Made by a program: the position numbers and the translations under genes
Part shown: positions 1,125-36,354 of the stretch, piece after piece
How positions within the stretch are numbered: the first letter of the stretch is position 1
Layout: each line of letters begins with the position of its first letter
Notes under the pieces: model-generated
Database searches by the model: none
What the model saw: only the letters and a program-made list of their open reading frames with translations
Told to the model about the DNA's origin: nothing
NCBI GenBank assembly: GCA_017993055.1
Contig: JAGONM010000006.1
Coordinates: 868-64,867, forward strand
Direction: 5' to 3'
Source: Armatimonadota bacterium
GTDB taxonomy: Bacteria; Armatimonadota; UBA5829; DTJY01
DNA: 64,000 bases

Positions 1125-2177
1125 CTACTGCCCGATAGGGGCCAGGTGAACGACGCCGTCCACGATGTATGCTATCCACTTGCCGTCGGGTGACCAGGAC
1201 GGCTGGCCCTCGATTTCGGGGGTGTCGGTCAGCCTCTGCACGACCGTGCCGTCGTCGCTGGCGATCCACAGGTCTGATGATGTGATCTCGTGCCCGTCGT
1301 CCGTCGTCCTCTCGAAAACGATGTAGGCCCCGTCCGGCGACCAGGCCGGGTTGGAGCCGTTGCCGAGTTCTATCACGTTCGTGGTGTCGCTGCTCGCGAT
1401 GTAGAGGTTGCCGCTCAACCCGCTGACCGCATAGTCGCCTCTTCCATCGCCGACGGGGTTGAAATACCCGGGTTCACCTTCTACGTCGAGGAGTTTCCTG
1501 CGGTTGCCGTTCTCGTCCACGACCCAGAGCAGGTTGTCCGGGTCGGTGTACAGGCTTCCCGCGGAGAGCGCGGCATCGGACTTTCGAGGCTGCGAGACCA
1601 GCAGGCCGAGCGCGGTGAACGTGGCCCCGGTGATCCGGCCCATCAGCATCGCTCCGGTGACCGCGGCGGCCTTTGAGAGAGTGCCGTTGCCCCCGGACAG
1701 GCTCCGCGAGCGCAGTACCTTGCCGTCCTTGTCAACGGTGACCAGTTCGTCTCCCGAACGATAGGTGATGCCGTCCTTGTCCCACGTCGGAGGGAGCAGA
1801 TCGTTCAGGGTCGGGGTGATCTCCCGACTCTCCCCGTCGCGCCCGGCGACGTTCAGGCGCATGCCCATTCCCTCCTCGTCCCTCGTGCGGTATGCGATGT
1901 TCCGGCCGTCGGGCGACCAGGCGAACTTCCAGCCTGCGAGAGGCGCGTCGGATATCTGGCGCAGATTGCCGTAGACGTCTGCGATGTACAGCCCGCCGTA
2001 CTTGTCGCCGGCGAGCGCGATGCCCTGTCCGTCCGGAGCCCACTTCGGCGAGGCGTATACTCCCTGCAGGCCGAGCTTCACGCTGTCGCCGAGGGTGAAT
2101 GCCGCTGCCGTGCTCGGCAGGGCGGCCAGAAAGGCGGCCGCCGAGAGCCAAGTCAATCGCCTGCACGCTCTCATCAC
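1125..2177 (-). CDS. TolB-like WD40/PD40 beta-propeller protein, secreted
   Basis: N-terminal signal peptide (LSAAAFLAALPSTAAA). Repeated PD40 motifs (WSPDGKWIAY, AWSPDGAYIVF, WSPDGRNIAY). Confidence 0.7.
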   Translation of the reverse strand: MMRACRRLTWLSAAAFLAALPSTAAAFTLGDSVKLGLQGVYASPKWAPDGQGIALAGDKYGGLYIADVYGNLRQISDAPLAGWKFAWSPDGRNIAYRTRDEEGMGMRLNVAGRDGESREITPTLNDLLPPTWDKDGITYRSGDELVTVDKDGKVLRSRSLSGGNGTLSKAAAVTGAMLMGRITGATFTALGLLVSQPRKSDAALSAGSLYTDPDNLLWVVDENGNRRKLLDVEGEPGYFNPVGDGRGDYAVSGLSGNLYIASSDTTNVIELGNGSNPAWSPDGAYIVFERTTDDGHEITSSDLWIASDDGTVVQRLTDTPEIEGQPSWSPDGKWIAYIVDGVVHLAPIGQ

Positions 2178-12863: not shown

Positions 12864-12896
12864 AGGCGATGCCGTGAGCGACGCCGGCCTGGCAGT

Positions 12897-13907: not shown

Positions 13908-13920
13908 GTAAACCTCCGGA

Positions 13921-15204
13921 TCACCTTCCAGCCGTCCTGAACTGCGGCAGATACTCAGCGTTAGCCTCGAGTATCCTGTCCAGCAGGGACTTCGCCGTCG
14001 TGTAGGACGGGACCAGCGGGTGCGACACCAGCGCCTGCAGGGCGGTCCGCCGCGACCCGGTTACAGCCGCCCGAACCGCTAGTTCCTCGTACGATTTCAC
14101 TGCCTGCAGCAGCCCGCGAATCTCCAGTGGAACATCTCCTATCGCCAGGGGATGCGCCCCCGAGCCGTCCACCACGCAGTTCGTCTCGATCGCGCACTCG
14201 GACGGCAGGCAGGGAATCGTGCTCCCGTTCCGTGTGTTGACTATGTGCAGTTCCTTCTTGTCGTTGTAGATCGCGCTGGCCAGGGATACTGCGGCGGTCG
14301 AGTAATGGGCGCCGCCGCGTTTCTCGAGCTCCTTCGGCTTCTTCTTCAAGTTCGGATCCTTGTACTTCTCGATCAGAGCGGCCTCGACTTCCGACACGAT
14401 GTCCCCGCGGGTCTTCCCGGTCTTCATGAGCGCTTCGAACACCTTGTCCCTCGCGTAGTAGTAATGCAGGTATCCGTTCGGGATCATACCGTACGTTCTC
14501 ATCCACGCGCGGTCCTCCTTCGGCCGGCCCGCGAGCGACTTCCTGACGGCTTCCTTGGTAACGTCCTTGCCCTTGACCGTGACCTTCGTGACCCAGCTGA
14601 GGTGGTTCAGCCCGACATACGCGAGGAGCAGGTCCTCCGGCCGAGCTGCGAGCTTCGTAGCGAGGCTCTTCGTCATACCGATCGGGACGTTGCAGAGGCC
14701 GATCACCTTGGTCTTCGTGTGCTTGAGAAGCGCCTCGGTCATGATGCCGCTCGGATTGGTGAAGTTGATCCACCATGCATCCGGCGCGAGCTTCTCGATG
14801 TCACGGGCGATGTCGAGCATGACCGGGACCGTCCGGAGCGCCTTCGCGAACCCGCCCGGACCGGTGGTCTCCTGACCGAGGATTCCGAATTCGAGCGGTA
14901 TGTGCTCGTCCCTGATGCGGGCGGGTATGCCGCCGACCCTGATCTGTGTCACGACGAAGTCCGCGCCCTCCAGGGCCTTGCGGCGGTCGGTGACGAGCTG
15001 CACTCTGGCTCCGGTTCCGGCCTTCTCGACCATCCGCGCCGCAAGGCCGCCGACGATCTTGAGCTTCGCCTTGTCAATGTCCATCAGAGCGATGCTCGTG
15101 GCCGGCAGTTCCCTCCTCCGCTTGATGAACCCCTCGATCAGCTCCGGGGTATATGTGCTTCCCGCACCGATCACGCAGATCTTCAACGCATCCATACCAT
15201 CCAC
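13921..15204 (-). CDS. glycoside hydrolase family 4 (NAD+/Mn2+-dependent 6-phospho-glycosidase-like)
   Basis: N-terminal Rossmann motif KICVIGAGSTYTPELIEGF, typical of GH4 (CelF/MelA-like). Length ~427 aa. Confidence 0.8.
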   Translation of the reverse strand: MDGMDALKICVIGAGSTYTPELIEGFIKRRRELPATSIALMDIDKAKLKIVGGLAARMVEKAGTGARVQLVTDRRKALEGADFVVTQIRVGGIPARIRDEHIPLEFGILGQETTGPGGFAKALRTVPVMLDIARDIEKLAPDAWWINFTNPSGIMTEALLKHTKTKVIGLCNVPIGMTKSLATKLAARPEDLLLAYVGLNHLSWVTKVTVKGKDVTKEAVRKSLAGRPKEDRAWMRTYGMIPNGYLHYYYARDKVFEALMKTGKTRGDIVSEVEAALIEKYKDPNLKKKPKELEKRGGAHYSTAAVSLASAIYNDKKELHIVNTRNGSTIPCLPSECAIETNCVVDGSGAHPLAIGDVPLEIRGLLQAVKSYEELAVRAAVTGSRRTALQALVSHPLVPSYTTAKSLLDRILEANAEYLPQFRTAGR

Positions 15205-15377
15205 CGCCTCGTTATGAAGTGCAAACGCCGTGGAGAACTCTCTATGGCAACTACATGGGATATTACGTCTCGACGGCTTCTCATCCTCCTCGCAAGAACT
15301 GTCTTTCGCGGTTGCGAAGCATTGAACATCGGAGTAGAATGCAGGCGTCCGAGGCTGCTATGGGGAAGGGTATATTC

Positions 15378-16943
15378 ATGGACATGGTCCGGTCGTGGGT
15401 GCAGAAACGCGGGTATCTGTTTGCGGTTCTCTGTATCGCGAGCGCCACGGCGGTTTTCTACCCCGGCCGTGATTACTTCGCAAGACAGCAGTGGGCGCTG
15501 CTCTATCTTCCGGTGATCGTCCTTGTGGCAGGCACGAGCGGCAGCCGACCCGCGCTGGTCGCTGCGGTGCTGTCGTTTCTCGCATGGAACTACTTCTTTA
15601 TCCCGCCGTATCACACACTGGTCGTCGCAGATCCGATGGACTGGCTTTCTCTCCTGGTCTTCCTGTTGGTGGGGATCACCATGGGTATGCAGACTGTCCG
15701 CATAAGGCGCAGGGAGTTGCAGGCGCTGCTGGGCGAGAGAGAGGCCATGTTACTCAATAGATTCAGTTCGCACCTGGTCACGGAAATGAACACTGCCGGG
15801 ATGACGGATATGCTGCTGACGGAGATCGCGCAGTCTATGGGCGCGAACGCCGCTGCGCTCTATCTCTCGGACGACGAAGGGCAGTTCTCCTGTGCCGGAC
15901 GATCGCCGTCTCTTCCCGCCGACTCAGCCGACGACATCGGCAGGCTGGCCGCCTGGGTCTTTGATCATGCAGAGGCGATCGGACTTCCCGCCGGCAGGGG
16001 TTCAGCGGGGAGCGACCTCGGCGTGTGGCCGATCTCCGTCAACCACAACGACATTGTGCCGGGGAGTACTCGCAGAGACCTGTTCCTCCCCCTTCAGACC
16101 GCGTCGCGGGTTGAGGGGGTGCTCTACGTGGGAGAGAAGACCGACGGGTCGGGCTACGCCCTGCACGATGCCAGACTGCTGGTATCCATCGTCAACCAGG
16201 CCGCCGCTTTTCGCGAGAGACGCCGCCTCCAGCACGCCGCCAACCAGGCGGCTGCTCTGAAGGAGGCCGACAGGCTGAAGTCCGCGTTCATGTCCTCGAT
16301 CTCCCACGAGCTGAAGACGCCGCTTGCGGCGCTGACCGCCACGATCACCAGTCTGATCGAAGAGGATGTCGCCTGGGACCCCGATGCCATGAGGGCTGAA
16401 CTCCGCGCAGTCAGTGAGGATTTGGACCGCCTGAACGACAGCATAGGTTCTCTCCTCGATCTGTCGAGGCTGGAGTCGAATGCCTGGGTGCCGCGGATTG
16501 AACCCTGTGAGGTCGGCGATATCATCGGTCTGGCGGTCTCCAGGGTCCGGGGCAAGCACAAGGAGCGAATAGACTTCTCGGTGCCGGACGATCTGCCGCT
16601 GATCTCGGTCGATTTCCATCAATGGGCGCGAGCGCTGGAGAACATCATCGAGAATGCGCTCGCGTACAGCGATCCCGACAAGTCCGTGTGCGTCGGGGCG
16701 TCCCACGACGCGGCTGGGACCAGGATCTGGGTAGAGGATCTCGGGCCGGGTATTGGCCCGCAGGAACGGACACGTGTCTTCGAGAAGTTCTATCGAGGCG
16801 ACGCTGCCCGGAACGTGGCCTCGGGCACGGGTCTTGGTCTTGCCATCGCCAAAGAGATCGTTCAGTCCCACGGCGGTAGTATTTTTGTCGAAGACGTGCA
16901 GCCGCACGGCGCTCGGTTCGCCATTCTACTTCCTGATTCTTAG
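15378..16943 (+). CDS. kdpD: KdpD C-terminal half: 4-TM domain, GAF, HisKA and HATPase sensor histidine kinase
   Basis: TM bundle (LFAVLCIASATAVFYP...), GAF domain, H-box SHELKTPLAAL, ATPase G-boxes ([13 protein letters not shown]). It lacks the KdpD N-terminal/Usp domains, which are encoded separately at 22537..23661. The start is placed at an internal ATG after a GGGGAAGGG RBS; 15339 is an alternative. Confidence 0.85.
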   Translation: MDMVRSWVQKRGYLFAVLCIASATAVFYPGRDYFARQQWALLYLPVIVLVAGTSGSRPALVAAVLSFLAWNYFFIPPYHTLVVADPMDWLSLLVFLLVGITMGMQTVRIRRRELQALLGEREAMLLNRFSSHLVTEMNTAGMTDMLLTEIAQSMGANAAALYLSDDEGQFSCAGRSPSLPADSADDIGRLAAWVFDHAEAIGLPAGRGSAGSDLGVWPISVNHNDIVPGSTRRDLFLPLQTASRVEGVLYVGEKTDGSGYALHDARLLVSIVNQAAAFRERRRLQHAANQAAALKEADRLKSAFMSSISHELKTPLAALTATITSLIEEDVAWDPDAMRAELRAVSEDLDRLNDSIGSLLDLSRLESNAWVPRIEPCEVGDIIGLAVSRVRGKHKERIDFSVPDDLPLISVDFHQWARALENIIENALAYSDPDKSVCVGASHDAAGTRIWVEDLGPGIGPQERTRVFEKFYRGDAARNVASGTGLGLAIAKEIVQSHGGSIFVEDVQPHGARFAILLPDS

Positions 16944-16958
16944 TTGGAGCGCAGCGCG

Positions 16959-17657
16959 ATGAGCATACCTGAGAGACGCGCCAGGATTCTGGTGATTGAC
17001 GACGAAGAGCAGATTCGTCGGGCGCTCAAGACCATCCTGGCCGTGCGCCATTACGAGGTCATCCTGGCCGCCGACGGGGACGAGGGGCTCGACCTGGCAG
17101 TGGACCACAGTCCTGATCTGGTGATACTGGATCTCTCGATGCCGGGCACGAGCGGCCTCGACGTCTGCCGGGATCTGCGCGCATGGTACAATGGGCCGAT
17201 CCTCGTGCTATCCGTCCGCTCGGGGGATGCGGACAAGATCAGCGCGCTTGACCTGGGCGCCGACGACTATCTGACGAAGCCTTTTTCCGCCGGAGAACTG
17301 CTGGCGCGGATCAGGGCCCTCCTTCGACGTGCATCCGGAATCCCGGCGGCCCCTCCGGTCATATCCGCCGGGGACTTGGAGATAGATATCGCAACCCGCC
17401 GCGTTACGCGGTCCGGCGCTGACATCGAGTTGACCCGGACCGAGTTTGACATTCTCGCCTATCTTGCGCAGAATGCCGACCGGGTCGTGACCTCTAGGAT
17501 GATCCTGGAGCAGGTCTGGGGTCCCGAATACGGCGAGGACACTCAGACGCTGCGGGTGCACATCAGCCATCTTCGCAAGAAGATTGAGTCCCATTCCTCG
17601 GTCCCCCGCTACATCCTCACCGAACCGGGCGTCGGCTTCCGATTCTCCATCTCCTGA
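16959..17657 (+). CDS. kdpE: OmpR-family response regulator KdpE
   Basis: Receiver domain (ILVIDDEEQIRRAL...DLVILDLSMPG) plus a winged-helix DNA-binding domain (RVHISHLRKKIE). Immediately downstream of the KdpD kinase. Confidence 0.9.
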   Translation: MSIPERRARILVIDDEEQIRRALKTILAVRHYEVILAADGDEGLDLAVDHSPDLVILDLSMPGTSGLDVCRDLRAWYNGPILVLSVRSGDADKISALDLGADDYLTKPFSAGELLARIRALLRRASGIPAAPPVISAGDLEIDIATRRVTRSGADIELTRTEFDILAYLAQNADRVVTSRMILEQVWGPEYGEDTQTLRVHISHLRKKIESHSSVPRYILTEPGVGFRFSIS

Positions 17658-17663
17658 CCATTA

Positions 17664-17680
17664 TTTATGGAATCTTTACA
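17664..17680 (+). promoter_or_regulatory. predicted KdpE operator: direct repeat TTTATG-N5-TTTACA
   Basis: CATTATTTATGGAATCTTTACACCTGCCCG closely resembles the E. coli kdpFABC KdpE box CATTTTTATACTTTTTTTACACCCCGCCCG (half-sites TTTATA / TTTACA spaced 5 bp apart). It is centred about 60 bp upstream of the predicted TSS, as in E. coli. Confidence 0.5.
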
Positions 17681-17719
17681 CCTGCCCGACCCTGCTTAAC
17701 CTCGATTTTACCCCCATGT

Positions 17720-17728
17720 TGGTACAAT
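17720..17728 (+). promoter_or_regulatory. extended -10 promoter element (TGgTACAAT) for the kdp transcript
   Basis: TGnTAnAAT match about 45 bp downstream of the KdpE box. TSS predicted near 17735. Confidence 0.35.
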
Positions 17729-17749
17729 ACCATTGCGGAGGAAATGGAG

Positions 17750-17878
17750 ATGGTGCGGATGATTACACAACTCCTTCAAATGCTCGCACTGCTGGCCTTC
17801 CTGGGACTCTGCCGGCTGTATGTTTCCTGGCAGTTGGCCTGCTGGGGCGAGGCCTGCAGACGGCGGAGACTCAGATGA
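17750..17878 (+). CDS. candidate small hydrophobic ORF in the kdpFABC leader (42 aa)
   Basis: ATG 8 nt after GGAGG, right after the predicted TSS. It encodes MVRMITQLLQMLALLAFLGLCRLYVSWQLACWGEACRRRRLR: one TM-like segment and a basic tail. Its stop overlaps the next small ORF's start (ATGA). Speculative. Confidence 0.25.
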   Translation: MVRMITQLLQMLALLAFLGLCRLYVSWQLACWGEACRRRRLR

Positions 17879-17961
17879 TGGCGGATCTCCTGTACCTTGT
17901 CGTCATGATGTCCTTTCTCGGTCTGTGCCTCTGGTACGTCCGTGGCGCGGACAGCCTGTGA
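17875..17961 (+). CDS. candidate second small hydrophobic ORF (28 aa, KdpF-like composition)
   Basis: MMADLLYLVVMMSFLGLCLWYVRGADSL, translationally coupled to the previous small ORF, 13 nt upstream of kdpF. Speculative. Confidence 0.25.
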   Translation: MMADLLYLVVMMSFLGLCLWYVRGADSL

Positions 17962-17974
17962 TACGGGAGCCGCG

Positions 17975-18064
17975 ATGAACATCGAATACTTGGTAGTCGG
18001 CATGATCGCGGTGGGGCTTCTGGTCTACCTCGTCTGGGCGCTTCTCAGACCTGATCGACTCTGA
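17975..18064 (+). CDS. kdpF: K+-transporting ATPase subunit F
   Basis: 29-aa hydrophobic peptide MNIEYLVVGMIAVGLLVYLVWALLRPDRL matching the KdpF consensus (...LLVYLVYALLRPEkF). Lies 10 nt upstream of kdpA. Confidence 0.7.
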   Translation: MNIEYLVVGMIAVGLLVYLVWALLRPDRL

Positions 18065-18074
18065 GTGAGAATGG

Positions 18075-19811
18075 ATGCTTCCGATGAGAACTGTCGATCT
18101 TGCGCAGATAGGAATCGTCGTCGCCTTGGTCATCATGGTTGCGAGACCGCTCGGCGCGTACATGGCGCGGGTGTTCAGCGGGGGTCGAACACTACTCGAC
18201 CCGGCGCTCTGCCCGATCGAGCGCGTAATCTACCGGACGTGCGGAATCGACCCGAACGACGAGATGCGCTGGACGACCTACACCGCGACGATGCTCGTCT
18301 TCAACTTCGTCGGCATGATCTTCCTCTACCTCGTGCTGCGCCTCCAGTGTGTCCATCCGCTCAATCCGCAGCAGTTCGGGGGATTCCGCCCGGATCTGGC
18401 GTTCAACACCGCAGTGAGCTTCGTCTCCAACACCAACTGGCAGGCCTATGCGGGCGAAACTACGGCCAGCTACCTGACCCAGATGGCAGGGCTGACCGTC
18501 CAGAACTTCCTCTCGGCGGCGACGGGTGTCGTGTTGGCGATAGCACTCTTCCGGGGACTCACGCGCCGCGGAGCTAACGAGATCGGCAATTTCTGGGTGG
18601 ATATCACACGATGCATCCTGTGGGTCCTGCTACCGATGTCTATCGTGTGCGCTCTAGCGCTCGTGTCGCAGGGGGTCATACAGAACCTCTCCCCGCACAT
18701 GGTTGCGACCACAATGGAGGGCCGACACCAGATGATCGCCCAGGGGCCTGTCGCATCTCAGGAGGCGATCAAGATGATCGGCACGAATGGCGGCGGATTC
18801 CTCAACGCGAACTCCGCCCATCCTTATGAGAACTCAACTCCTCTGACGAACCTGATCGAGATGCTTTCGATCTTCGCCATCCCCGCGGGGCTCACGTACA
18901 CCTTTGGCCGGTTCGCCGGCAACCAGCGTCAGGGATGGGTGTTCTTTTCCGCGATGATGATTCTCTTTCTTGCCGGACTTGGTGTGACGTACTGGGCGGA
19001 GTCCGCCGCGAACCCAAACCTTGCCTCACTCGGGGTTGACCAGGCAGCCGGCACCGCTCAGAGCGGCGGCAACATGGAGGGCAAGGAGGTCCGATTCGGG
19101 ATTGCCAACTCGGTGCTCTTCGCAACCATGACAACTGATGCGTCCTGCGGCGCGGTGAACAGCATGCACGACAGCTATACCCCGCTCGGGGGAGGGATGC
19201 TGATGCTGAACATCGCGCTAGGCGAGGTGATCTTCGGCGGCGTGGGAGCGGGGATGCTGGGCATTATCGTCTTTGCCGTTCTCGCGGTTTTCATCGCCGG
19301 ACTAATGGTCGGGCGCACTCCCGAATACCTTGGGAAGAAGATCGAGCCGAAGGAGATGAAGATGGCGATGCTGGCAGTGTTGGTCGTCGCGGCAAGCGTG
19401 CTCTGTGTCGGCGCGCTCGCATCTAGCGTCGCGCCGGGGCTTGTCGGGCGGCTGAACGCGGGTCCTCACGGCCTTTCCGAGATACTCTATTCCGCCACAT
19501 CGGCAAGCGGTAACAACGGAAGCGCGTTCGCCGGACTGACGTCTGGCACACCGTTCTACGATCTCATTCTGGGTCTGGCCATGCTTATCGGACGGTTTCT
19601 CTTCATCATCCCGACGATGGCGATCGCCGGATCGATGGTCGCCAAGAGGACCGTCCCGGAGACTAGTGGCACATTCCCGACGACTGGCGGCCTGTTCGTC
19701 TGCCTGGTCGTCGCGGTTATACTGATCATTGGGGCGTTGACCTTCTTCCCGGCGTATGCGCTCGGCCCGATTGTCGAGCATTTCCTGATGCACGCGGGAC
19801 AAACGTTCTAG
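18075..19811 (+). CDS. kdpA: K+-transporting ATPase subunit A
   Basis: 578 aa, polytopic, KdpA-like throughout (MTNGGGF-type selectivity segments, e.g. [19 protein letters not shown]). Confidence 0.95.
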
Positions 19812-19843
19812 CTGGAGGGGTGCGAGAGGTGGACGTAACAGGC

Positions 19844-21913
19844 ATGACCGATGTCGCGCGAAGTGAGTTTGGTGCAGGCCGTGGCAAGAATCGGAGAGTG
19901 CCGCAGAGCGAGTTGATCAAACAGGCGGTGATCCGGTCGTTCGCGAAGCTCGACCCGAGAAGCCTCGCCCGCAATCCGGTGATTTTCGTGACCGAGGTCG
20001 GAAGCGCCGTCTGTACAGGCTACGTCTTCCTGGCCCTGGTGCGGGCCTCGGGCGATATCGCCTTCCTGGGCGGCATAGCGGCTTGGCTCTGGTTCACCGT
20101 TCTTTTCGCCAACTTCGCCGAAGCCATGGCCGAGGGTCGTGGAAAGGCACAGGCCGATAGTCTGCGCAAGATGAAGACCGACACGATGGCGAATCTGCGC
20201 GCTGACGGCGAGATCCGGCGGGTACCGGCCACGGAGCTCCGGAAAGGCGACACCGTGGTGATCTCCGCGGGCGAGACCATACCCGGCGATGGCGATGTTA
20301 TCGAAGGCATCGCATCGGTCGATGAGTCCGCCATTACAGGTGAATCCGCTCCGGTCATCCGCGAGAGCGGCGGGGACAGGAGTGCGGTCACCGGCGGGAC
20401 GAAGGTACTCTCAGACCAGATTGTCGTGCGAATCACTTCCGAGCCGGGCGAAACCTTCCTCGACTGCATGATCTCTTTGGTGGAAGGGGCATCGAGGCGG
20501 AAGACGCCCAACGAGATGGCTCTGGATATCCTGCTCGCCGGGCTGACGATCATCTTCCTTCTCGTCGCGGTGACCCTCCAGGCGTTTGCGATCTACTCGG
20601 GCGGCGCAGTGCCGATCTCCGTGCTCGTCGCTCTGCTCGTCTGTCTGATACCAACCACCATCGGTGGCCTCCTTTCCGCGATCGGCATCGCGGGGATGGA
20701 CAGGCTGATCCGACACAACGTCCTCGCCATGTCCGGCCGCGCCGTCGAGGCTGCCGGAGATATCGACACCCTATTGTTGGACAAGACCGGTACGATCACC
20801 CTGGGCAATCGGCAGGCCGGCGAGTTCGTTCCCATGCCCGGCGTCGAACTGAGCGAGGTCGCCGACGCTGCGCAGTTGTCTTCTCTCAGCGACGAGACAC
20901 CCGAGGGGCGGAGCATCGTGGTGCTCGCGAAGAACAGCTTCGGGCTCCGAGGGCGGCACATCAACGAGGCCGAGGCGCGGTTCGTACCGTTCACGGCGGA
21001 GACGAGGATGAGCGGCATTGATCTGAACGGTCGGCACATCCGGAAGGGTGCGGTCGACTCCGTGGTCTGCTGGGTGAGGCAGCAGGGAGGAGAGTCGCCG
21101 CCTGAGTTGGACGTAGTCGTGAAACGAATCTGCAGTTCGGGAGGGACTCCCCTTGCAGTCGCCGAGGGTGATCGGATACTCGGCGTGGTCCACCTCAAGG
21201 ATGTCGTCAAGGGGGGCATACAGGAGCGATTCGGCCAACTGAGGGCGATGGGGATTCGCACCGTCATGGTTACCGGAGACAACCCGATAACCGCATCTTG
21301 GATTGCTCGGGAGGCCGGGGTTGACGACTTCCTGGCGCAGGCCAGCCCGGAAAACAAGCTGGAACTGATCCGGAAGGAGCAGGCGCGGGGCAAGCTCGTG
21401 GCGATGACCGGGGACGGCACAAACGATGCTCCCGCGCTTGCACAGGCCGACGTCGGGGTCGCGATGAACACAGGCACGACCGCCGCCAAGGAGGCCGGGA
21501 ACATGGTCGATCTGGACTCCAATCCGACAAAGCTCATTGAGATTGTTGAGATCGGAAAGCAGTTGCTGATGACCCGAGGGGCGTTGACGACCTTCAGCAT
21601 CGCTAACGATGTCGCGAAGTATTTCGCGATCATCCCCGCGATATTTGCTGGGACGTACCCGGTGCTTAACAAGCTCAACATCACGCATCTGAACTCCCCG
21701 CACAGTGCGGTCTTGTCCGCGGTGATCTTCAATGCGCTGATCATCGTCGCTCTGATCCCGCTCGCGCTCAGGGGTGTGCGATACCGGCCGCTCGGGGCAG
21801 GGGCGCTTCTCAGGAACAACCTGCTTGTGTACGGCTTGGGAGGGTTGATCGCTCCATTCATCGGCCTGAAGTTGCTGGATCTGCTTCTGGTGGCTCTCGG
21901 TCTGGCCGGTTAG
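19844..21913 (+). CDS. kdpB: K+-transporting P-type ATPase subunit B
   Basis: P-type ATPase motifs DKTGTIT and [12 protein letters not shown]. The N-terminus is KdpB-like. The ORF-track start at 19820 abuts the RBS with no spacer, so I place the start at the ATG at 19844 after GAGAGGTGG. Confidence 0.9.
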
Positions 21914-21929
21914 ATAAGGTGTCTCAACC

Positions 21930-22502
21930 ATGTTACGGCACGTCGTGATATCTACGAAACTGATCCTGCTCAGTACGGTCCTGCTCGGTCTGTTCTATCC
22001 CTGGGCGATCACAGGCATCGCCCAGGTAGTGTGGCCCGACCGGGCGAATGGGAGCTTGGTGGAACGGAACGGCTGCATCGTGGGTTCGATGCTGATCGGA
22101 CAGGCCTTCTCGCGGCCCGAGTACTTTCATCCTCGACCGTCTGCCGCGGGAGAAGGCTATGATGCATCGGCATCGGCCGGCTCGAATCTGGGGCCGACTA
22201 GCAGGGTGCTCAGAGACCGCGTAAGCGCGGACGTTCGTAGACTGATCAGGGAGAACCCGGGGCTGAGGCGCGGCGCGATCCCGGTGGACATGGTGACCGC
22301 GTCAGCGAGCGGGCTGGATCCGGACATCTCTCCTGCGAACGCATACTCCCAGGCCGCGCGGGTCGCCGCCGTACGGGGGATGACGCTCGCCGAGATGCGA
22401 AATCTCATCCGCGAGAACACGACGCCCCGGCAGTTCGGCATTCTCGGAGAGCCGAGGGTGAACGTGCTCCGGCTCAATATGGCTCTCCAGGGGTTGCCAT
22501 GA
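21930..22502 (+). CDS. kdpC: K+-transporting ATPase subunit C
   Basis: 190 aa with a single N-terminal TM helix (LILLSTVLLGLFYPWAITGIAQ). KdpC family. Confidence 0.9.
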   Translation: MLRHVVISTKLILLSTVLLGLFYPWAITGIAQVVWPDRANGSLVERNGCIVGSMLIGQAFSRPEYFHPRPSAAGEGYDASASAGSNLGPTSRVLRDRVSADVRRLIRENPGLRRGAIPVDMVTASASGLDPDISPANAYSQAARVAAVRGMTLAEMRNLIRENTTPRQFGILGEPRVNVLRLNMALQGLP

Positions 22503-22536
22503 TCCCATTCGTCCTATCCGTTCTCGAGGTTCCATA

Positions 22537-23661
22537 GTGACCGAAGAACAATCCGAACTGCGATCGCATGTCGCCGATAGTCGCGGCCGTCTGAAGATCT
22601 TCCTCGGCGCAGTGCCCGGAGTGGGCAAGACGTTCAGGATGCTCTCGGAGGCCCACCGACGTTTCGCGCGCGGGGAAGACGTGGTGATCGGCCTCATCGA
22701 GACCCACGGACGCCCCGCGACAGCGGAACTGATCGAGGGTCTCGAGCAGATCCCTCTGAAGCAGATCGAATATCGCGGCAAGACATTTCACGAGCTGGAC
22801 ACGGCCGCCGTGATAGAGCGCAAACCCGAATGGGTCCTCGTGGATGAGATGGCTCACACCAACGTCCCCGGCACAGTCCACGCCAAACGATGGCAGAGCA
22901 TCGATGAGATACGCAACGCCGGCATCAACGTGATCTCGACGCTCAACATCCAGCACTTGGATAGCCTTAACGACACGGTTTTGGAGCTGACCGGCGTTCG
23001 AGTGAGGGAGACCATTCCGGATTCCGTCGTCATGGAAGCGGACGAGGTGGAGTTGGTGGACCTGACCCCGGATGCCGTAATCAATCGGCTGAGGCGCGGG
23101 GATATATACCGCGAAGAGAAGATCTCCCAGGCGCTCGCCAATTTCTTCAAGAAGGGGAACATCGTGGCGCTTCGGGAGCTTGCTCTGCGAATGACCGCCG
23201 ATGAGGTGGACGTACAGCTGCATCAGTACATGCAGAACCACCACATGGAGCAGGCCAAGCTCGCGCGCGAGCATATCGTCGTGGCGGTCGCTCCTCGTCT
23301 GCTCTCGCTGAAGCTCGTTCGCAGGGGCTACAGGCTAGCGCGGCGCACTCAGGGCGACTTCGTCTGCGTATACGTGCGCGTGCCGGGCTCGACGCCCGGC
23401 AGGAGGGAACTGCACATCCTCGAGGAAGTCCGCGACCTCACTCGAAACCTCGGCGGCGAGTGGGCGGAACTCCAGGGTGACTCCATCGCCGAGGAACTGA
23501 TCAAGTACGTGCGCGAATCCGGGACCACGCTTATCGTGATGGGGCAGTCCGCACGCAGGCGATGGAACGAGATCGTGCGAGGCTCGATCGTCAACCGGAT
23601 CATGCGCGAGATAAAGAATGTGGACATCCTAGTGATCGCTCACACCGAAGAGGAAGAATGA
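22537..23661 (+). CDS. kdpD: KdpD N-terminal sensor domain (PF02702-like, Walker A) plus Usp domain, as a stand-alone protein
   Basis: LKIFLGAVPGVGKTFRMLSEAHRR...LVDEMAHTNVPG...RWQSIDEIRNAGINVISTLNIQHLDSLND aligns closely with the N-terminus of E. coli KdpD. The C-terminal Usp fold ends at ILVIAHTEEEE. GTG start 34 nt after kdpC. Confidence 0.85.
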   Translation: MTEEQSELRSHVADSRGRLKIFLGAVPGVGKTFRMLSEAHRRFARGEDVVIGLIETHGRPATAELIEGLEQIPLKQIEYRGKTFHELDTAAVIERKPEWVLVDEMAHTNVPGTVHAKRWQSIDEIRNAGINVISTLNIQHLDSLNDTVLELTGVRVRETIPDSVVMEADEVELVDLTPDAVINRLRRGDIYREEKISQALANFFKKGNIVALRELALRMTADEVDVQLHQYMQNHHMEQAKLAREHIVVAVAPRLLSLKLVRRGYRLARRTQGDFVCVYVRVPGSTPGRRELHILEEVRDLTRNLGGEWAELQGDSIAEELIKYVRESGTTLIVMGQSARRRWNEIVRGSIVNRIMREIKNVDILVIAHTEEEE

Positions 23662-23978
23662 ACGGAATCTTAATGTCTGTCCAGCCTGAGTTCACGCCTG
23701 CTTCACACAGCATCTGCTACACTGGCAGTACTCGAACTGTGCGGATGCGAGGGGAACGCAGTGACAACTACCGCAGCGACTCCTGGACTTTCCTTCGCGG
23801 CGATGTGCGCATGTCCCCGGCATGCAACCCGCCTGCACTGCTGCGTGAAGGTCGAGCAAAAGGCCAACTGCGGTGTCACTCATCCCCGACGCGGATGGTG
23901 CGTGCGCATGCCGGACGAGGCTGAGTCGACGGGTGATCCGGCATCGACCGGCAAGCCCGTCGGATCCCGGAGGATGAA

Positions 23979-25892
23979 ATGCTCTATTGGATCAGGCGAC
24001 TGCTGATCGGGAATCCCATACCCTCCTCGAGAGCGATACATGAGAGGTTGTCGAAGTTCATCGCGCTGCCCGTCTTCGGATCGGACCCGATCTCATCGGT
24101 CGCCTACGCTACTGAGGAAATTCTGCTCGCACTGATCCTCATCGGCCCGCTGCTGATCACGCACTCCAACGCGCTAATCTATATCGCCGTCGCGATCGTT
24201 ACCCTGATGACGATAGTGGCCACCTCGTATCGCCAGACGATCTTCTCGTATCCTTCCGGCGGCGGGGCATACATTGTGGCGAAGGACAATCTCGGCACGA
24301 CTCCGGGCCTCTTTGCAGGAGCCGCCCTGATGATCGACTACGTCCTGACCGTGGCGGTAAGCGTATCGTCCGGTGTTGCGGCCGTTCTATCCTTTCTGCC
24401 CCACTACCAGCACTATCACGTCGAGCTTGCCGTCTGCGTGGTGATATTCATAGCCCTCGCGAACCTGCGCGGTGTTCGGGAGTCCGGAGCGCTGTTCGCC
24501 CTGCCGACTTACGTCTTCGTCGGGAGCGCGCTGACGCTCGTGGCGATGGGTGTGTACCGGATATTCACCGATGCCGGCTTTGCTGTCCCTCCTCCGCCTG
24601 CAGGCTCCGTGCCCGAACCGGTGCACCTCGGCGCGTCAGGTCTCCTGCTGGGTTTTCTTATCCTGAGGGCATTTGCCAGTGGCTGCGCGGCCATGACCGG
24701 GACGGAAGCGGTGAGCAATGGGATACCCGCGTTCCGCCCCCCGGAGTCCAAGAACGCTGCAGCGACTCTGGTGATCATGATATCACTGCTGGCGACACTG
24801 TTCATAGGGATCTCTTTCGTCGCGTGGAAAGGGCACGTGATTCCGATGGAGCAGACAGCAGCAGGGTACCAGACCGTGCCGTCGCAGATCGCGGCAGCGG
24901 TCTTTGGGAGGAACTGGTTCTACTATCTCTTCCAGGTCTCCACTGCTCTGATACTGATACTGGCCGCCAACACGAGTTTCGCCGACTTCCCGCGCCTCGG
25001 TTCCATCATGGCGCGTGACCGTTTCCTGCCTAGACAACTCTACAATCTCGGCGACAAACTCGTCTACTCAAACGGAATCGTCGTGCTGTCGCTCCTTGCG
25101 GTCACCCTGATCGTAGTGTTCCGGGGGGTAGTGAATGCCCTGATACCGTTGTACGCGATTGGTGTGTTTCTCTCGTTCACGCTGTCGCAGTCGGGAATGG
25201 TCAGGCATTTCATCCGCCTCAGACAGCGGGGGTGGCGTCGCGGCGTGATCATCAGCGGAGTGGGGGCCGTCGCGACCGCGATCGTCTGCATCGTGCAGGC
25301 GGTCACCAAGGCCTCGGAGGGGGCGTGGATCGTTCTCATTCTCATACCGACACTCGTATACGTGTTCTCGAGGATCAACAAGCACTACGTTGCTCTCGGC
25401 AACGAACTCCGACTTACCCCGGAGGACAGCTTTGTTCCGATCGACAACGTGGTACTCGTTCTGACTCCGTCGCTGCACAAGGGTGTACTGCCCGCACTGG
25501 AATACGCGAAGTCCCTGTCCGCACAGGTGCGTGCGATACACGTGGAGACCGATCCGCTCGATACCGAACTTCTTGTGGAACGCTGGGACAAGTGGAGTGG
25601 TGGAATCCCTCTTATCATCCTCGAATCTCCATACAGGTCGCTGGTCGGTCCGCTGATGGAGTACCTCGACGAAGTCAAGGAGGAGAGCGGCAACCAGATG
25701 GTCACTGTCGTACTCCCCGAGTTCGTGACCGGCAAGTGGTGGCACCGCATTCTCCACAACCAGTCCGGACTCATGCTCAAGTTCGCGCTCCTGTTCAAGG
25801 ACGGTATCGTCACGTCGAATATCCGATACCATCTTGCCGGGCGGATGAACGGCAGGCGCCGTGCTGCTGCCCGCCAGACTCCATCCTTGTGA
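23979..25892 (+). CDS. kimA: KimA (YdaO)-like APC-superfamily K+/H+ symporter
   Basis: The N-terminus LYWIRRLLIGNPIPSS...LSKFIALPVFGSDPISSVAYATEEIL...SYPSGGGAYIVAKDNLG closely matches B. subtilis KimA (MYHSIKRFLIGKPL...YAYPQGGGAYIVSKENLG). 12 TM helices plus a cytoplasmic C-terminal domain. Confidence 0.8.
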   Translation: MLYWIRRLLIGNPIPSSRAIHERLSKFIALPVFGSDPISSVAYATEEILLALILIGPLLITHSNALIYIAVAIVTLMTIVATSYRQTIFSYPSGGGAYIVAKDNLGTTPGLFAGAALMIDYVLTVAVSVSSGVAAVLSFLPHYQHYHVELAVCVVIFIALANLRGVRESGALFALPTYVFVGSALTLVAMGVYRIFTDAGFAVPPPPAGSVPEPVHLGASGLLLGFLILRAFASGCAAMTGTEAVSNGIPAFRPPESKNAAATLVIMISLLATLFIGISFVAWKGHVIPMEQTAAGYQTVPSQIAAAVFGRNWFYYLFQVSTALILILAANTSFADFPRLGSIMARDRFLPRQLYNLGDKLVYSNGIVVLSLLAVTLIVVFRGVVNALIPLYAIGVFLSFTLSQSGMVRHFIRLRQRGWRRGVIISGVGAVATAIVCIVQAVTKASEGAWIVLILIPTLVYVFSRINKHYVALGNELRLTPEDSFVPIDNVVLVLTPSLHKGVLPALEYAKSLSAQVRAIHVETDPLDTELLVERWDKWSGGIPLIILESPYRSLVGPLMEYLDEVKEESGNQMVTVVLPEFVTGKWWHRILHNQSGLMLKFALLFKDGIVTSNIRYHLAGRMNGRRRAAARQTPSL

Positions 25893-25991
25893 CAACCGCG
25901 CTCGTGAGACCGGCGTGTCTCTTGCAGAGGCAGGTCGAAGATCGTCCCGCGCCGAACAGTTCACTGGCATCAGTCTGGAAAGGCGGCGCCG

Positions 25992-27200: not shown

Positions 27201-27243
27201 GTCTAATGATTGTATCCAGTCTCGTATCCGAGAGGAGAGTGCC

Positions 27244-33655: not shown

Positions 33656-34030
33656 TCACTCGGTCGGCATCTTCAGCGCCTTCTTTGCCTTCTTGACGAG
33701 CACCTCTGGGTCGAACGGCTTCATAATGTAGTCGGATACCCAGAGCTGCCTCGCCTCGTCCACGGAGATGCTCGCGGTCTTCGCGGTAAGCATGATGACG
33801 GGTACCTTGGAGGTCTTCCTGCGGGAGCGGATCTGCCGCAGAACCTCCATGCCGTCCATCAGAGGCATCATTATGTCGAGTATCACGAGATCAGGCATCT
33901 CCGCCTCAACGAGCGCGAGCCCGCTCTGCCCGTCCGCGGCGGTGATCGTGTCGAAACCTTCCTTCTCAAACCTGAACTGGAGCAGGCGGACTACATCCGC
34001 TTCGTCATCCACTATCAACACCCTGGCCAT
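33656..34030 (-). CDS. single-domain CheY-like response regulator
   Basis: VLIVDDEADVVRLL...PDLVILDIMMPLMDG...VIMLTAK receiver motifs and no output domain. The ORF-track start overlaps the kinase gene by 1 nt, so I place the start at the internal ATG. Confidence 0.75.
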   Translation of the reverse strand: MARVLIVDDEADVVRLLQFRFEKEGFDTITAADGQSGLALVEAEMPDLVILDIMMPLMDGMEVLRQIRSRRKTSKVPVIMLTAKTASISVDEARQLWVSDYIMKPFDPEVLVKKAKKALKMPTE

Positions 34031-34080
34031 GTCTCCACCTCCCTCGTATGCGTTCGGCGTGCCGACCGCGAGGCTCGTCA

Positions 34081-36354
34081 CTATCCGACTGCGGCGATCG
34101 GTATCGTAAAGCTGAAGGTGCTGCCGTGACCCTTTTCGCTTTCGACCCAGATCTTTCCTCCGTGCATCTCGACCAGATGCTTCGTGATCGCCAGCCCGAG
34201 TCCGGTCCCTCGGATCTGTCTGACGGAATCGCTCTCTCCGCGGTAGAACATCTGGAAGAGCTTGCCGCGCTCCTCAGGTGCGATTCCCATGCCGGTGTCT
34301 ATCACCTTGATCAACACGTTCTTGTCCACGCGGTAAGCGGTCAGTTTGATGGTAGTAGAATCGGCGCTGTACTTGACCGCGTTCGAGACGAGATTCGCGA
34401 GGATTTGTCCGAGCCTGTTCGCGTCCGCCCGCACGGGCGGCAGGTCAGCCTCCACGTCGGTCACTATCGAGATGCTCTTCTCGTCCGCAAGGGCCTTCAG
34501 CGATTCTAGTTCGTGCTCGCACACCTCGGTGAGGTCCACCGGCGTCAGCACCAGGTCGAGTCGCCCGGACTGGATCTTGGATATGTCGAGCAGATCGTTC
34601 ACGAGCGCCACCAGCCGGTCCGTGTTCCGGCTCACAGTTGTGAGAAACTCAGTCTGCACCTCATTCAGTTCGCCCGAGTGTCCCGCCAGTATGGTCTTAA
34701 CGTAACCCTGGATCGAGGTCAGCGGCGTCCTCAGTTCATGGGATACGAGCGAGACGAACTCGGTCTTGAGATGGCTGATCTCCTCAAGTGCGCGCCGCGT
34801 AACCTCTTCCTTGAGCAGTCTCTCGTCGAGCAGCGCTCGCTGCAGTGCGATTGCGGACGTGCGCGACGCCGTCTGCAGCAGTTCGTGTTCGGAGGGCTGG
34901 AGTTTCTTCGCATCCCTGAAGTAGAGGCTGAACACCCCGATCGGCTCATCGGCCGGAATGAGCGGCACGGCGATCACGGACGTGTAGCTCTCCATGCGCG
35001 CCATCTCTCGCCAGGCCGCGAATCGGCGGTCCTTGAACACGTTGCTGATCGCATAAATCTTCTTGTTGCGGATGGCGAGCGCGGCCGGACTCTGCCCGTT
35101 CGGCGTGTCGGGCGCTATGGATACCTGCACGTTCTCGTTGGCAACCCGGGTGTACTCGTCGGACAGGCCGTAGATCGCGCCTGTCTGCAGGTACATTCCC
35201 GTCTCGTCGAGCAGCCTGATGGACCCGAACTTCGCGCCGAACGACAGGCACATGTGCGATACGACGAACGTGAGGGCGCTCGGAACGTCGAGGGCGGACG
35301 CCAGTTCCTGCGCGAGACGGTAGAGTATCTTCTGCTCCGATAGACGCCTCTTCGCCTGTTCGTACAGCCGGGCGTTCTCTATCGCAACCGCCGCCTGTCC
35401 GGCGAGGGAGAGCAGTAGGTGCTGGTCTTCCTCCGTGAACCATTTCGGCTCAGTGCACGCGACCGTGAGGACTCCTATTGTCTTGGATTCGAGGAGCAGC
35501 GGGACTGAGACCATCGAGGAAATCGGTTCAGCATCGTTCGGGAAATAGTCCATGCGCGGCTCGGACCGGCAGTCGTTCACTATGAGCGGCGTTCCGTGCT
35601 CTGCCACCCAGCCGGGCACCCCCTGGCCTACTTTGAGCCGGATTCGCTTCATGGTCTGCTTGCCGAGCCCCTGCGAAGCGCGGATGACCATGTCGCCGGT
35701 GCTCGGCTCGATCAGCCTGACGCTGCTTATGTCCGTGCCGAGAAGCCGATTAGCCTCGTCCATGACTACGTTCAGCGCCCAGCGGGTGTTCGTGGATGCG
35801 CCGATTGTCTGCGCCACCTTCGAGATCGCGTCGAGCGCGTCGGAACGGTGCCGCGCCTCTTCCAGCAGTCGGGCGGTCTCGATGGCCGCCCCCGCCTGAT
35901 TCGCCAGAAGGAACACCGGCTCGAGCCTTTCGGAAAGTATCCTGCCCGACTTGTTCCAGAACGCCGCGAGAATCCCGGCGGGAGAGCCTTTGTGGACTAT
36001 CGGGACGATGACCGCCGCCCCGAGCGACTTCTTGCGTGCCAATGTGCGAAGTCCCGGGTGCTCTGCAATCTCAGTCAGGATCAGAGGCTCGAGAGCGGTC
36101 GCCGACTCGGCGGGGAACTGGCCCCCGAGGGAGTCTACCAGGCCTCTTGCGACGTCTGTCGGCAGGTTGTAGCTCGCGCCGTAGAAATAGACCTTCCTCT
36201 GCTTGTCGTGAAGGGCTATCCAGCTCGCATCAGCATTGGCGAGGTTGACCGTCGCCTCGACGACGGTCTGCGCGAGGTCGTGAAGCTCAGGGCTGGCGGA
36301 GAGCATGCGCCCGATCTCGTATAGAGTGGACAGTTCCCAGTGCAGGTCTCTCAT
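34081..36354 (-). CDS. multi-GAF sensor histidine kinase (3 GAF domains, HisKA, HATPase)
   Basis: Three GAF-like blocks followed by the H-box [11 protein letters not shown] and ATPase motifs ([18 protein letters not shown]). Confidence 0.85.

Follow-up and report, generated by a model that had tools for sequence, protein, structure and literature searches.

KdpD encoded by two genes on either side of kdpFABC in an Armatimonadota bacterium: a conserved arrangement of an already catalogued type

The N-terminal domain of KdpD works on its own as an atypical serine kinase, switching off the pump subunit KdpB at the serine of its TGES loop, S162 (Silberberg 2024, Nat Commun 15:3223, PMC11018627). 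In E. coli this activity needs the Walker A motif, the Walker B residues D109/E110, R190 and W39. An isolated KdpD 1-230 construct phosphorylates KdpB, as does the natural KdpD/Usp protein of Deinococcus geothermalis, a short form that acts on E. coli KdpB by itself; ATP-dependent KdpB phosphorylation without autophosphorylation has been demonstrated only for these E. coli and D. geothermalis proteins (PMC11018627). The E. coli activity is K+-dependent only in a membrane or lipid environment, and the serine-kinase gene is reportedly kept 3′ of the pump genes (PMC11018627). In the same survey, a 'KdpD/Usp + TM/GAF/DHpCA' class, with KdpD split over two chains, was found in 140 of 5495 species, mainly Acidobacteriota (31/37) and Chloroflexota (15/25), with one of five Armatimonadota; species in which a full-length KdpD is also present were filed as full-length. 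The published table has 922 species with KdpD/Usp-only proteins and without any KdpD-type kinase, and 122 of its 131 cyanobacteria have KdpD/Usp only (PMC11018627). As cited there, the first published 'split sensor-kinase kdpD gene' is that of Alicyclobacillus acidocaldarius (Schleussinger, Schmid and Bakker 2006, BBA 1759:437). In Deinococcus radiodurans, kdpBAC-kdpD-N is accompanied by a divergent kinase/regulator operon, the regulator of which is needed for kdp induction (Dani et al. 2017, PMC5716572).

In the window, i.e. the whole 64-kb stretch of DNA analysed here, KdpD is encoded by two separate genes, kdpD-C and kdpD-N, that bracket kdpFABC on the + strand (Table 1). The plus-strand order is kdpD-C, kdpE, a KdpE box, three small ORFs including kdpF, kdpA, kdpB, kdpC, kdpD-N and a kimA homologue. 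By BLASTP, the N half corresponds to residues 14-376 of E. coli KdpD (43% identity, 3e-93) and the kinase half to residues 397-882 (29% identity, 7e-48), so that the halves are complementary without overlap and the break falls at the junction between the Usp domain and the first transmembrane segment. No second KdpD-type sequence is present in the 64-kb window. Four further species-level loci (L089, L090, L166/L167, L168) have their genes in the same direction and succession, kinase-regulator-(F)ABC-kdpD-N, with proteins 51-74% identical to those of the window.

Table 1. Features of the split kdpD locus (positions in the window).
Feature	Position	Strand	Remarks
Sigma-70-like promoter candidate, TTGCGA-17-TAGAAT	15312..15340	+	Before kdpD-C; weak candidate, 9/12 matches in a consensus scan
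kdpD-C	15378..16943	+	521 aa; four hydrophobic segments/DUF4118, GAF, HisKA, HATPase_c; membrane-anchored histidine-kinase half
kdpE, response regulator	16959..17657	+	232 aa from ATG 16959; ORF opens at TTG 16944
KdpE-box direct repeat, TTTATG-GAATC-TTTACA	17664..17680	+	Directly after kdpE; putative binding site
-10-like hexamer, TACAAT	17725..17730	+	45 nt 3′ of KdpE box, without a good -35; putative promoter element
Small hydrophobic ORF	17744..17878	+	44 aa; loosely conserved in relatives
Hydrophobic ORF, 27-28 aa type, MMADLLYLVVMMSFLGLCLWYVRGADSL	17875..17961	+	Directly 5′ of kdpF; conserved
kdpF	17975..18064	+	29 aa; TIGR02115, 32.6 bits, above cut-off; Pfam Potass_KdpF
kdpA	18075..19811	+	PF03814, 4e-240
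kdpB	19820..21913	+	P-type ATPase with TGES serine; Pfam
kdpC	21930..22502	+	PF02669, 7e-70
kdpD-N	22537..23661	+	374 aa; soluble KdpD domain and Usp; putative atypical serine kinase
kimA homologue	23979..25892	+	K+/H+ symporter, APC superfamily; phmmer to B. subtilis KimA

The kinase half matches the Pfam families DUF4118 (2e-25), HisKA (2e-11) and HATPase_c (2e-20), and neither PF02702 nor Usp was found in its ORF by the same search. Its GAF match of 24.6 bits stays below the Pfam cut-off of 27, although the region still aligns end to end with E. coli 397-882. Among NCBIfam models the KdpD equivalog scores best (positions 397-882 of its 895), and the H box SHELKTPL and the N, G1 and G2 boxes align with those of E. 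coli KdpD. In the N half, which ends before any transmembrane segment, Pfam finds PF02702 (KdpD; 6e-94, profile 2-210 of 210) and Usp (9e-10) and no kinase domain. Residues 14-230 match PDB 2R8R, the KdpD N-terminal region (6e-68), and the predicted (AF2) structure resembles both 2R8R and the KdpD Usp structure 7JI4. The best NCBIfam model, NF038185 ('KdpD-like non-kinase potassium sensor'), is matched over profile positions 14-372 of 373 with 413.8 bits, short of its cut-off of 550. The best 120 homologues of each half are all stand-alone proteins, those of kdpD-C having about 500-590 aa and no PF02702. These HMM results confirm the domain assignments made in a sequence-only reading of this DNA, whose coordinates, including the kinase start at 15378, and gene order, kdpD(HK)-kdpE-kdpF-A-B-C-kdpD(N), were likewise accurate. 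That start is preceded at 7 nt by GGAAGGG and is better than the public one at ATG 15360 (NCBI record MBP6963517.1, 'DUF4118 domain-containing protein'); the open frame extends back to 15153, and its first 75 codons overlap an opposite-strand GH4 gene and look non-coding. The kdpE gene follows the kinase stop after 15 nt, with GGAG 9 nt before its ATG, and kdpD-N follows kdpC after 34 nt without a terminator-like site, with GAGG 7 nt before its GTG.

With KdpE and KdpFABC present, an N chain of KdpD and Usp domains encoded 3′ of kdpC and a second chain of KdpD-type TM, GAF and DHp/CA domains, the locus is best explained as a member of the two-chain class of Silberberg 2024, the absence of a full-length KdpD being judged within the 64-kb window alone. 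The framework of that study also carries over, with a serine kinase acting on KdpB S162 and a histidine kinase for transcription; it sorts proteins per species, however, and does not describe the order kdpD-C, kdpE, KdpE box, kdpFABC, kdpD-N, kimA. In A. acidocaldarius the N chain is likewise 3′ of the pump genes and the kinase separate (as related in PMC11018627), but by the title of the 2006 paper the halves stand in two divergent operons, whereas here all genes are on one strand. Deinococcus (D. radiodurans; D. geothermalis KdpD Q1J2K3) likewise encodes a KdpD/Usp protein (about 365 aa, 44% identical) behind kdpC and has a separate two-component system beside the kdp operon. There, in contrast, the operons are divergent, and what the HAMP-annotated kinase DR_B0082 has in common with the window kinase is the generic DHp/CA part alone (25% over 230 aa, from residue 294 onward); it does not represent a genuine C-terminal half of KdpD. 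An arrangement of the Deinococcus type, kdpD-N with an unrelated kinase, does not describe the window, the kinase of which has the KdpD TM/GAF region. The truncated KdpD of cyanobacteria (Anabaena, Synechocystis; kdpABGCD), which the sequence-only reading had rightly named as a precedent, likewise consists of KdpD and Usp domains alone, its gene closing the operon; the copy on a plasmid of Synechocystis PCC 6714 is 44% identical to kdpD-N, but its operon has no flanking KdpD-type kinase half or kdpE. The same reading had implied that the presence of both halves is unusual, which the Deinococcus loci and the 140 catalogued species contradict: the split is real and conserved but already catalogued, and hence an ordinary case.

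KdpE is 45% identical to its E. coli counterpart, consists of Response_reg and Trans_reg_C domains (Pfam; best NCBIfam model KdpE) and keeps the phospho-acceptor Asp as well as R193, R200 and T215, which contact the DNA (contact residues and box half-sites as defined in PMC3264566). The box behind its gene is the sole TTTAYR-N5-TTTAYA match in the 64-kb window, with 0 expected from 100 shuffles. In E. coli the box TTTATA-CTTTT-TTTACA is followed by CCCCGCCCG, and here CCTGCCCG stands at the matching place. Judged by sequence, this is a putative KdpE-dependent promoter, with 6-bp direct repeats of the TTTATA/TTTACA type 5 bp apart upstream of kdpF. No such repeat is present upstream of kdpD-C. 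In three related loci (L168, L089, L166) the interval from the regulator gene to kdpA contains KdpE-box-like repeats, and in L006 one lies upstream of kdpA, though without an adjacent regulator gene. Of the two small ORFs before kdpF, neither has an NCBIfam match (no family match for the 44-aa ORF), and a peptide like the second one precedes kdpF in 13 of 96 loci, from Armatimonadota-like, Gemmatimonadota and Rhizobiales genomes. Compared with E. coli (kdpFABCDE), all KdpD domains are present and collinear, and the locus keeps the KdpE box, the DNA-contact residues and the TGES target in KdpB; E. coli, however, has one KdpD polypeptide and kdpDE downstream of kdpC, whereas here the kinase and regulator genes are upstream. 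Since these would lie outside the KdpE-dependent transcript, only the serine-kinase half would be co-induced with the pump, unlike in E. coli.

The residues required for serine-kinase activity are largely retained in kdpD-N: the Walker A motif GAVPGVGKT at 24-32 (GVGKT 28-32), the Walker B residues D103/E104 and R184, which corresponds to R190, are invariant in 24 relatives (about 65-98% identity). The partner of R190 in the adenine-coordinating pair, W39, has F33 as its counterpart in the window, and at least 90% of the relatives carry Y there: aromatic residues, but not Trp. KdpB is 65% identical to E. coli KdpB, and a 19-residue TGES stretch is identical, which conserves both E161 and S162. 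These catalytic and target residues, together with the experiments on the E. coli and D. geothermalis proteins, point to kdpD-N as a serine kinase that phosphorylates KdpB. In its Usp domain, the Firmicute/S. aureus c-di-AMP motif (A/G/C)xSxSxxN(Y/F) is replaced by AVAPRLLSL, and the FTAxY of the alternative motif SxS-x20-FTAxY by FVCVY; the E. coli-type RxxxR-x8-WxAVY ((W/F)xxVY) fits better (RRGYR-LARRTQGD-FVCVY). The D. radiodurans homologue likewise lacks the c-di-AMP motif, yet a response to c-di-AMP is known for the related protein of D. geothermalis (PMC11018627), so the motif may not be diagnostic outside Firmicutes. No diadenylate cyclase (DAC) signature occurs within the 64-kb window; all five Armatimonadota species of the published table have a diadenylate cyclase (PMC11018627).

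The best explanation, to which we give about two chances in three, is a split KdpD of the catalogued type, in a K+-uptake cluster from an uncultured member of the Armatimonadota, whose halves divide the labour between transcriptional and post-translational control and do not need to reassemble. Such a division is the best reading because the catalytic residues of kdpD-N (W39 excepted) and the KdpB target are conserved. All functional statements on this locus rest on homology. By analogy with its homologues, kdpD-C would sense K+ via its transmembrane and GAF region and phosphorylate KdpE, which in turn would bind the box directly after its own gene and activate a promoter with a poor -35. A single KdpE-driven transcript would then comprise the small ORFs, kdpFABC and kdpD-N. 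The KdpD-N/Usp protein, made in step with the pump, would phosphorylate the TGES serine of KdpB and shut the pump at replete K+. The off-signal may be received by the Usp domain, for which c-di-AMP is a precedent, although the Firmicute binding motif is absent. This missing motif and the Phe in place of W39 count against the explanation. So does the membrane-dependent K+ response of the E. coli serine kinase, a sign that the N domain may communicate with the TM/GAF region; here such communication could persist in trans.

An unlikely though serious alternative is that the halves bind non-covalently and rebuild a full KdpD. The N half would then either adjust the activity of the histidine kinase/phosphatase or itself be gated by the membrane half, which senses K+. 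A reported trans-complementation in E. coli (Heermann 2000) makes interaction in trans possible, and an Anabaena-N/E. coli-C chimera reportedly functions (Ballal 2002; cited in PMC5401905). The stimulation of the E. coli serine kinase by K+ only in lipid would also fit, as would the break exactly at a domain junction and the presence of both halves in one cluster in five loci, the present one included. Against reassembly, there is no sequence sign of a docking surface between the halves, and in kdpD-C the first hydrophobic segment is preceded by only about 10 residues. In L004, L005 and L006 the kinase half does not adjoin the pump genes: the kinase/regulator pair is either 600 kb distant or missing from the flanking DNA. 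One relative, 73% identical, has about 600 kb between this pair and kdpFABC-kdpD-N, which means that adjacency is dispensable and that kdpD-N stays with the pump and not with the kinase half. Moreover, KdpD/Usp-only proteins work without a KdpD-type kinase in 922 species, and the D. geothermalis short form is active by itself. The sequence-only reading had taken the arrangement to suggest interaction in trans; the sequence lends this no support, proximity being equally explained by co-regulation, and the distant pair and the autonomous KdpB-phosphorylating role of the N half in the current experimental model weaken it further. Its interpretation is partly supported. Reassembly and division of labour are not mutually exclusive.

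Far less probable is a non-catalytic kdpD-N, i.e. a sensor or scaffold that tunes KdpE or the pump by binding and not by phosphorylation. The name of NF038185 and the lack of W39 favour such a role, but Walker A, Walker B D/E and R184 are invariant, which would make little sense in a protein with no nucleotide chemistry, and the intact TGES target and a natural short form shown to be a kinase argue against it.

That the split reflects mis-assembly or a recently broken full-length kdpD is effectively refuted, even though the DNA comes from a metagenome-assembled genome. Between the halves lie 5.6 kb with intact genes, a distance that the sequence-only reading had correctly held against a frameshift. 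Each half starts with a Shine-Dalgarno sequence and start codon of its own, both fall in deep clades of stand-alone proteins, the order is seen again in other species and samples on independent contigs, and the identical kdpD-N sequence is found on an independent ENA contig. KdpD is here naturally split.

The adjacent kimA homologue, which matches B. subtilis KimA (6S3K) over residues 2-619 (E = 3e-147, phmmer), probably belongs to the same K+-uptake cluster. A kimA gene adjoins kdpD in five further loci (L090, L139, L106, L121, L097), and in L165 it comes after the detached kinase/regulator pair.

On alignment with E. coli KdpD, the predicted products of kdpD-C (the transmembrane/GAF/histidine-kinase half) and kdpD-N (the KdpD domain plus Usp protein) are complementary halves of one sensor, the N half covering residues 14-376 (43% identity, E = 3e-93) and the kinase half residues 397-882 (29% identity, E = 7e-48). 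The chain is broken where the Usp domain meets the first transmembrane helix. The best NCBIfam models are KdpE for the window regulator and the KdpD equivalog, at profile positions 397-882 of 895, for the kinase half, which has four hydrophobic segments (the first about 10 residues from its N-terminal start) and intact H, N, G1 and G2 boxes. The N half matches the N-terminal region of KdpD in the crystal structure 2R8R (6e-68) and scores 414 bits against NF038185, the NCBIfam model of the KdpD short form, under the cut-off of 550. Its AlphaFold (AF2) model, with a moderate pLDDT of 70.8 (domain cores good, linker 177-242 poor), resembles 2R8R as well as 7JI4, the Usp domain of KdpD, and adds nothing to the sequence match. 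The kdpD-C frame is open back to 15153, and its 75 leading codons, which overlap a divergent GH4 gene, look non-coding; GGAAGGG lies 7 nt 5' of the ATG at 15378, and the public gene call starts at ATG 15360. Gene and domain analysis of the window confirmed the split KdpD around the kdp operon described in the sequence-only reading, whose coordinates and domain calls for both halves are correct. The sequence was matched to contig JAHZTK010000245.1 of the metagenome-assembled genome GCA_020047475.1, and NCBI labels the proteins as Armatimonadetes/Armatimonadota bacterium. A second two-component pair, a histidine kinase with an adjoining receiver domain, is also encoded in the window; its kinase matches kdpD-C in the GAF-to-CA part (27% identity) and has no DUF4118 part.

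Features of the kdp region and of comparison loci from relatives (L165 is the second locus in the L004 genome)
Feature	Sequence	Position	Strand	Content
kdpD-C	window	stop at 16943	+	DUF4118, weak GAF, HisKA, HATPase_c
kdpE	window	16959..17657	+	Response_reg + Trans_reg_C
KdpE box	window	17664-17680		TTTATG-GAATC-TTTACA
44-aa ORF	window	17744..17878	+	small, hydrophobic
27-28-aa ORF	window	17875..17961	+	hydrophobic
kdpF	window	17975..18064	+	29 aa; TIGR02115 above cut-off
kdpA	window	18075..19811	+	
kdpB	window	19820..21913	+	
kdpC	window	21930..22502	+	
kdpD-N	window	22537..23661	+	PF02702 KdpD domain E = 6e-94, Usp; 374 aa; no kinase part
KdpE-box-like element	window	23659..23675	+	TGAACG-GAATC-TTAATG
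kimA	window	23979..25892	+	'APC family permease'
second two-component pair	window	33713..35337	-	histidine kinase, receiver domain
KdpD-C, two ORFs	L165	6001..7642		
KdpE-box-like element	L165	8520..8536		TACACA-GAATC-TTAACA
27-28-aa ORF	relatives	L005 5345; L004 ~4950; L089 5337; L090 5370; L166 12731; L172, Rhizobium leguminosarum, 2019..2102		
27-28-aa ORF	relatives	L014, L058, L072, L077, L135/L136		

A frameshift or fusion artefact as the source of the split is rejected. An identical copy of the kdpD-N sequence is present on an independent ENA contig, and the co-oriented order kinase half-regulator-(F)ABC-N half is also found in L089, L090, L166/L167 and L168, where the kinase half is 51-60% and the N half 66-74% identical. 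The best 120 homologues of the N half are without exception KdpD+Usp proteins of 362-392 aa, and the best 120 of the kinase half all lack PF02702 and measure roughly 500-590 aa. Because the gene order is kept in relatives and the best homologues of each half stand alone, the split is old and stable and not a recent break. Adjacency of the kinase/regulator pair to kdpFABC-kdpD-N is not obligatory: in L004, L005 and L006 the pair does not adjoin these genes, and in the 5.4 Mb L004 genome it lies about 600 kb away. KdpD-C is called there, in L165, as two ORFs overlapping by 59 nt (470 aa and a 95-aa HATPase_c fragment), a call that is due to a frameshift or sequencing error. Congruence between the two halves when relatives are ranked by identity was discarded as a co-evolution signal, since KdpB gives the same ranks and the signal thus reflects species phylogeny only. 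A genome-collection scan with the single N-half protein as query found no relative, the species itself being absent from that collection; with an alignment as query, most of the matches were full-length KdpD from Proteobacteria, and close short forms numbered only three; a metagenome scan gave about nine close relatives among the matches listed, two of them informative.

The split arrangement is already known, Schleussinger et al. being cited for it by Silberberg et al. (2024, PMC11018627). Supplementary Data 2 of the latter work assigns 140 of 5495 species to the class in which KdpD/Usp is separate from TM/GAF/DHpCA, including 31/37 Acidobacteriota, 15/25 Chloroflexota and 1/5 Armatimonadota. 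In Deinococcus radiodurans, kdpBAC-kdpD-N is accompanied by a sensor kinase and a response regulator that are encoded divergently (Dani et al. 2017, PMC5716572). However, the likeness of the Deinococcus kinase to the window kinase is confined to the generic DHp/CA part, which places the locus, as seen in the 64-kb window, in the true-split class and not with the Deinococcus type. The window adds an Armatimonadota case with a single-strand gene order to a class of 140 species, which alone matters little. Another layout is present in L106 (1627..11947) and L014, where a kinase/regulator pair, led by the kinase in L106 and by the regulator in L014, lies upstream of kdpABC and is followed by a KdpD of about 640-840 aa that has N, Usp, TM and GAF but no DHp/CA; this corresponds to the published class 'Truncated DHpCA + TM/GAF/DHpCA'.

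The direct repeat of predicted KdpE half-sites between kdpE and kdpF starts 7 nt past the kdpE stop codon and is the sole match to the half-site pattern in 64 kb (0 expected by chance). It resembles the E. coli TTTATA-CTTTT-TTTACA, including the CCnGCCCG that follows, and is succeeded 45 nt downstream by a TACAAT hexamer; the window KdpE retains the DNA-contact residues R193, R200 and T215. The strict pattern has no match in the relatives. A relaxed pattern, with just two occurrences across the window, recovers similar repeats where they would be expected: in L168, L089 and L166 they lie after the regulator gene and before kdpA, and in L006, where no regulator gene adjoins, they precede kdpA. 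The kdpC-kdpD-N gap is 34 nt and contains no terminator-like site. We conclude that the kinase and regulator genes would lie outside the induced transcript; with the serine-kinase half predicted inside this KdpE-dependent transcript and the histidine-kinase half outside it, the two KdpD activities would be genetically separable at the locus.

The gene directly after kdpD-N encodes a clear homologue of the K+/H+ symporter KimA (6S3K, E = 3e-147). kimA adjoins kdpD also in L090, L139, L106, L121 and L097, and in the L004 genome a kimA of 79% identity comes after the detached KdpD-C/KdpE pair. This recurrent linkage to kdpD and to the KdpD-C/KdpE pair suggests that kimA is in the same regulon, and may outweigh the main finding in worth. 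Degenerate KdpE-box-like elements are present 5' of kimA in the window and in L165, with a -10-like hexamer about 42-45 nt past each (TACACT and TAAAAT, respectively), the same geometry as that of the kdp box and TACAAT. The window element and its hexamer imply a 250-nt kimA leader, in which neither a ydaO riboswitch (Rfam) nor a significant fold (z = -1.8) was found.

Silberberg et al. (2024, PMC11018627) showed that the N-terminal domain of KdpD works as an atypical serine kinase, which phosphorylates S162 of KdpB and inhibits the pump. The domain suffices for this in isolation, activity requires Walker A, D109/E110 of Walker B and the pair W39/R190, and a natural D. geothermalis KdpD/Usp protein phosphorylates E. 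coli KdpB on c-di-AMP addition. In kdpD-N, Walker A (GVGKT, 28-32), D103/E104 and R184 are present and invariant in 24 relatives, the W39 equivalent is F33 (Y in most relatives), and the KdpB TGES region of the window is identical to that of E. coli. Judged from these residues and the gene order, the most likely reading is a division of labour in which the kinase half and KdpE would handle transcription control and the N half, co-transcribed with its substrate pump, would act as a post-translational brake. Control by c-di-AMP is not claimed, because the Firmicute c-di-AMP motif is absent from the window Usp domain, where the region resembles the E. coli type. Diadenylate cyclase signature motifs were not found in a six-frame translation of the 64-kb window, and the enzyme is recorded in 5/5 Armatimonadota species (Silberberg et al. 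2024, PMC11018627). An Rfam search of 12000-27500, the c-di-AMP (ydaO) riboswitch included, gave nothing credible, with one chance snoRNA match (E = 0.42).

The sequence-only reading had further proposed that the two halves interact in trans. Its interpretation is partly supported. The interaction has a precedent in E. coli, as indicated by the title of Heermann 2000, and it fits the K+ dependence of the E. coli serine kinase, which is seen only in a lipid environment (PMC11018627). The window sequence offers nothing in favour of the interaction, and relatives with a detached kinase/regulator pair suggest that proximity of the halves is dispensable. It appears unlikely that the locus encodes a split tandem kinase in which the K+-sensing membrane half recruits KdpD-N/Usp in trans and gates it, and the KdpD-C/KdpE pair also drives kimA through the degenerate box in this lineage; if true, a high-affinity pump, the brake on it and a symporter would all be coordinated by one split sensor. 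The locus could serve as a clean natural test case for two questions: does the serine kinase depend on the K+-sensing membrane half, and which signal is read by a Usp domain that lacks the Firmicute c-di-AMP motif?

kdpF itself appears to be without annotation in the NCBI record, since exactly five numbers, for KdpE, KdpA, KdpB, KdpC and KdpD-N, separate the kinase half (MBP6963517) from KimA (MBP6963523). Immediately 5' of kdpF lies a conserved hydrophobic ORF of 27-28 aa, with a consensus of approximately M-x-D-(15 hydrophobic residues)-(L/F)(W/A)Y(V/T)R-x-(A/C)(D/E)RL-stop. By the strict pattern it is found in 13 of 96 loci, from Armatimonadota-like, Gemmatimonadota and Rhizobiales genomes. 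No NCBIfam model matches it, the PLSDB gene table of a RefSeq Rhizobium leguminosarum plasmid, which is incomplete, does not list it, and a literature search on a small ORF 5' of kdpF returned nothing relevant. The ORF may encode a leader peptide or a small Kdp subunit that has escaped recognition, and a conserved, unannotated gene for a 27-residue membrane peptide before kdpF in distant phyla may outweigh the main finding. Between the KdpE box and this ORF there is a third small hydrophobic ORF, of 44 aa, and loosely similar TM peptides with a C/W-Y...Q...W pattern occupy the same position in L004, L005, L089 and L166.
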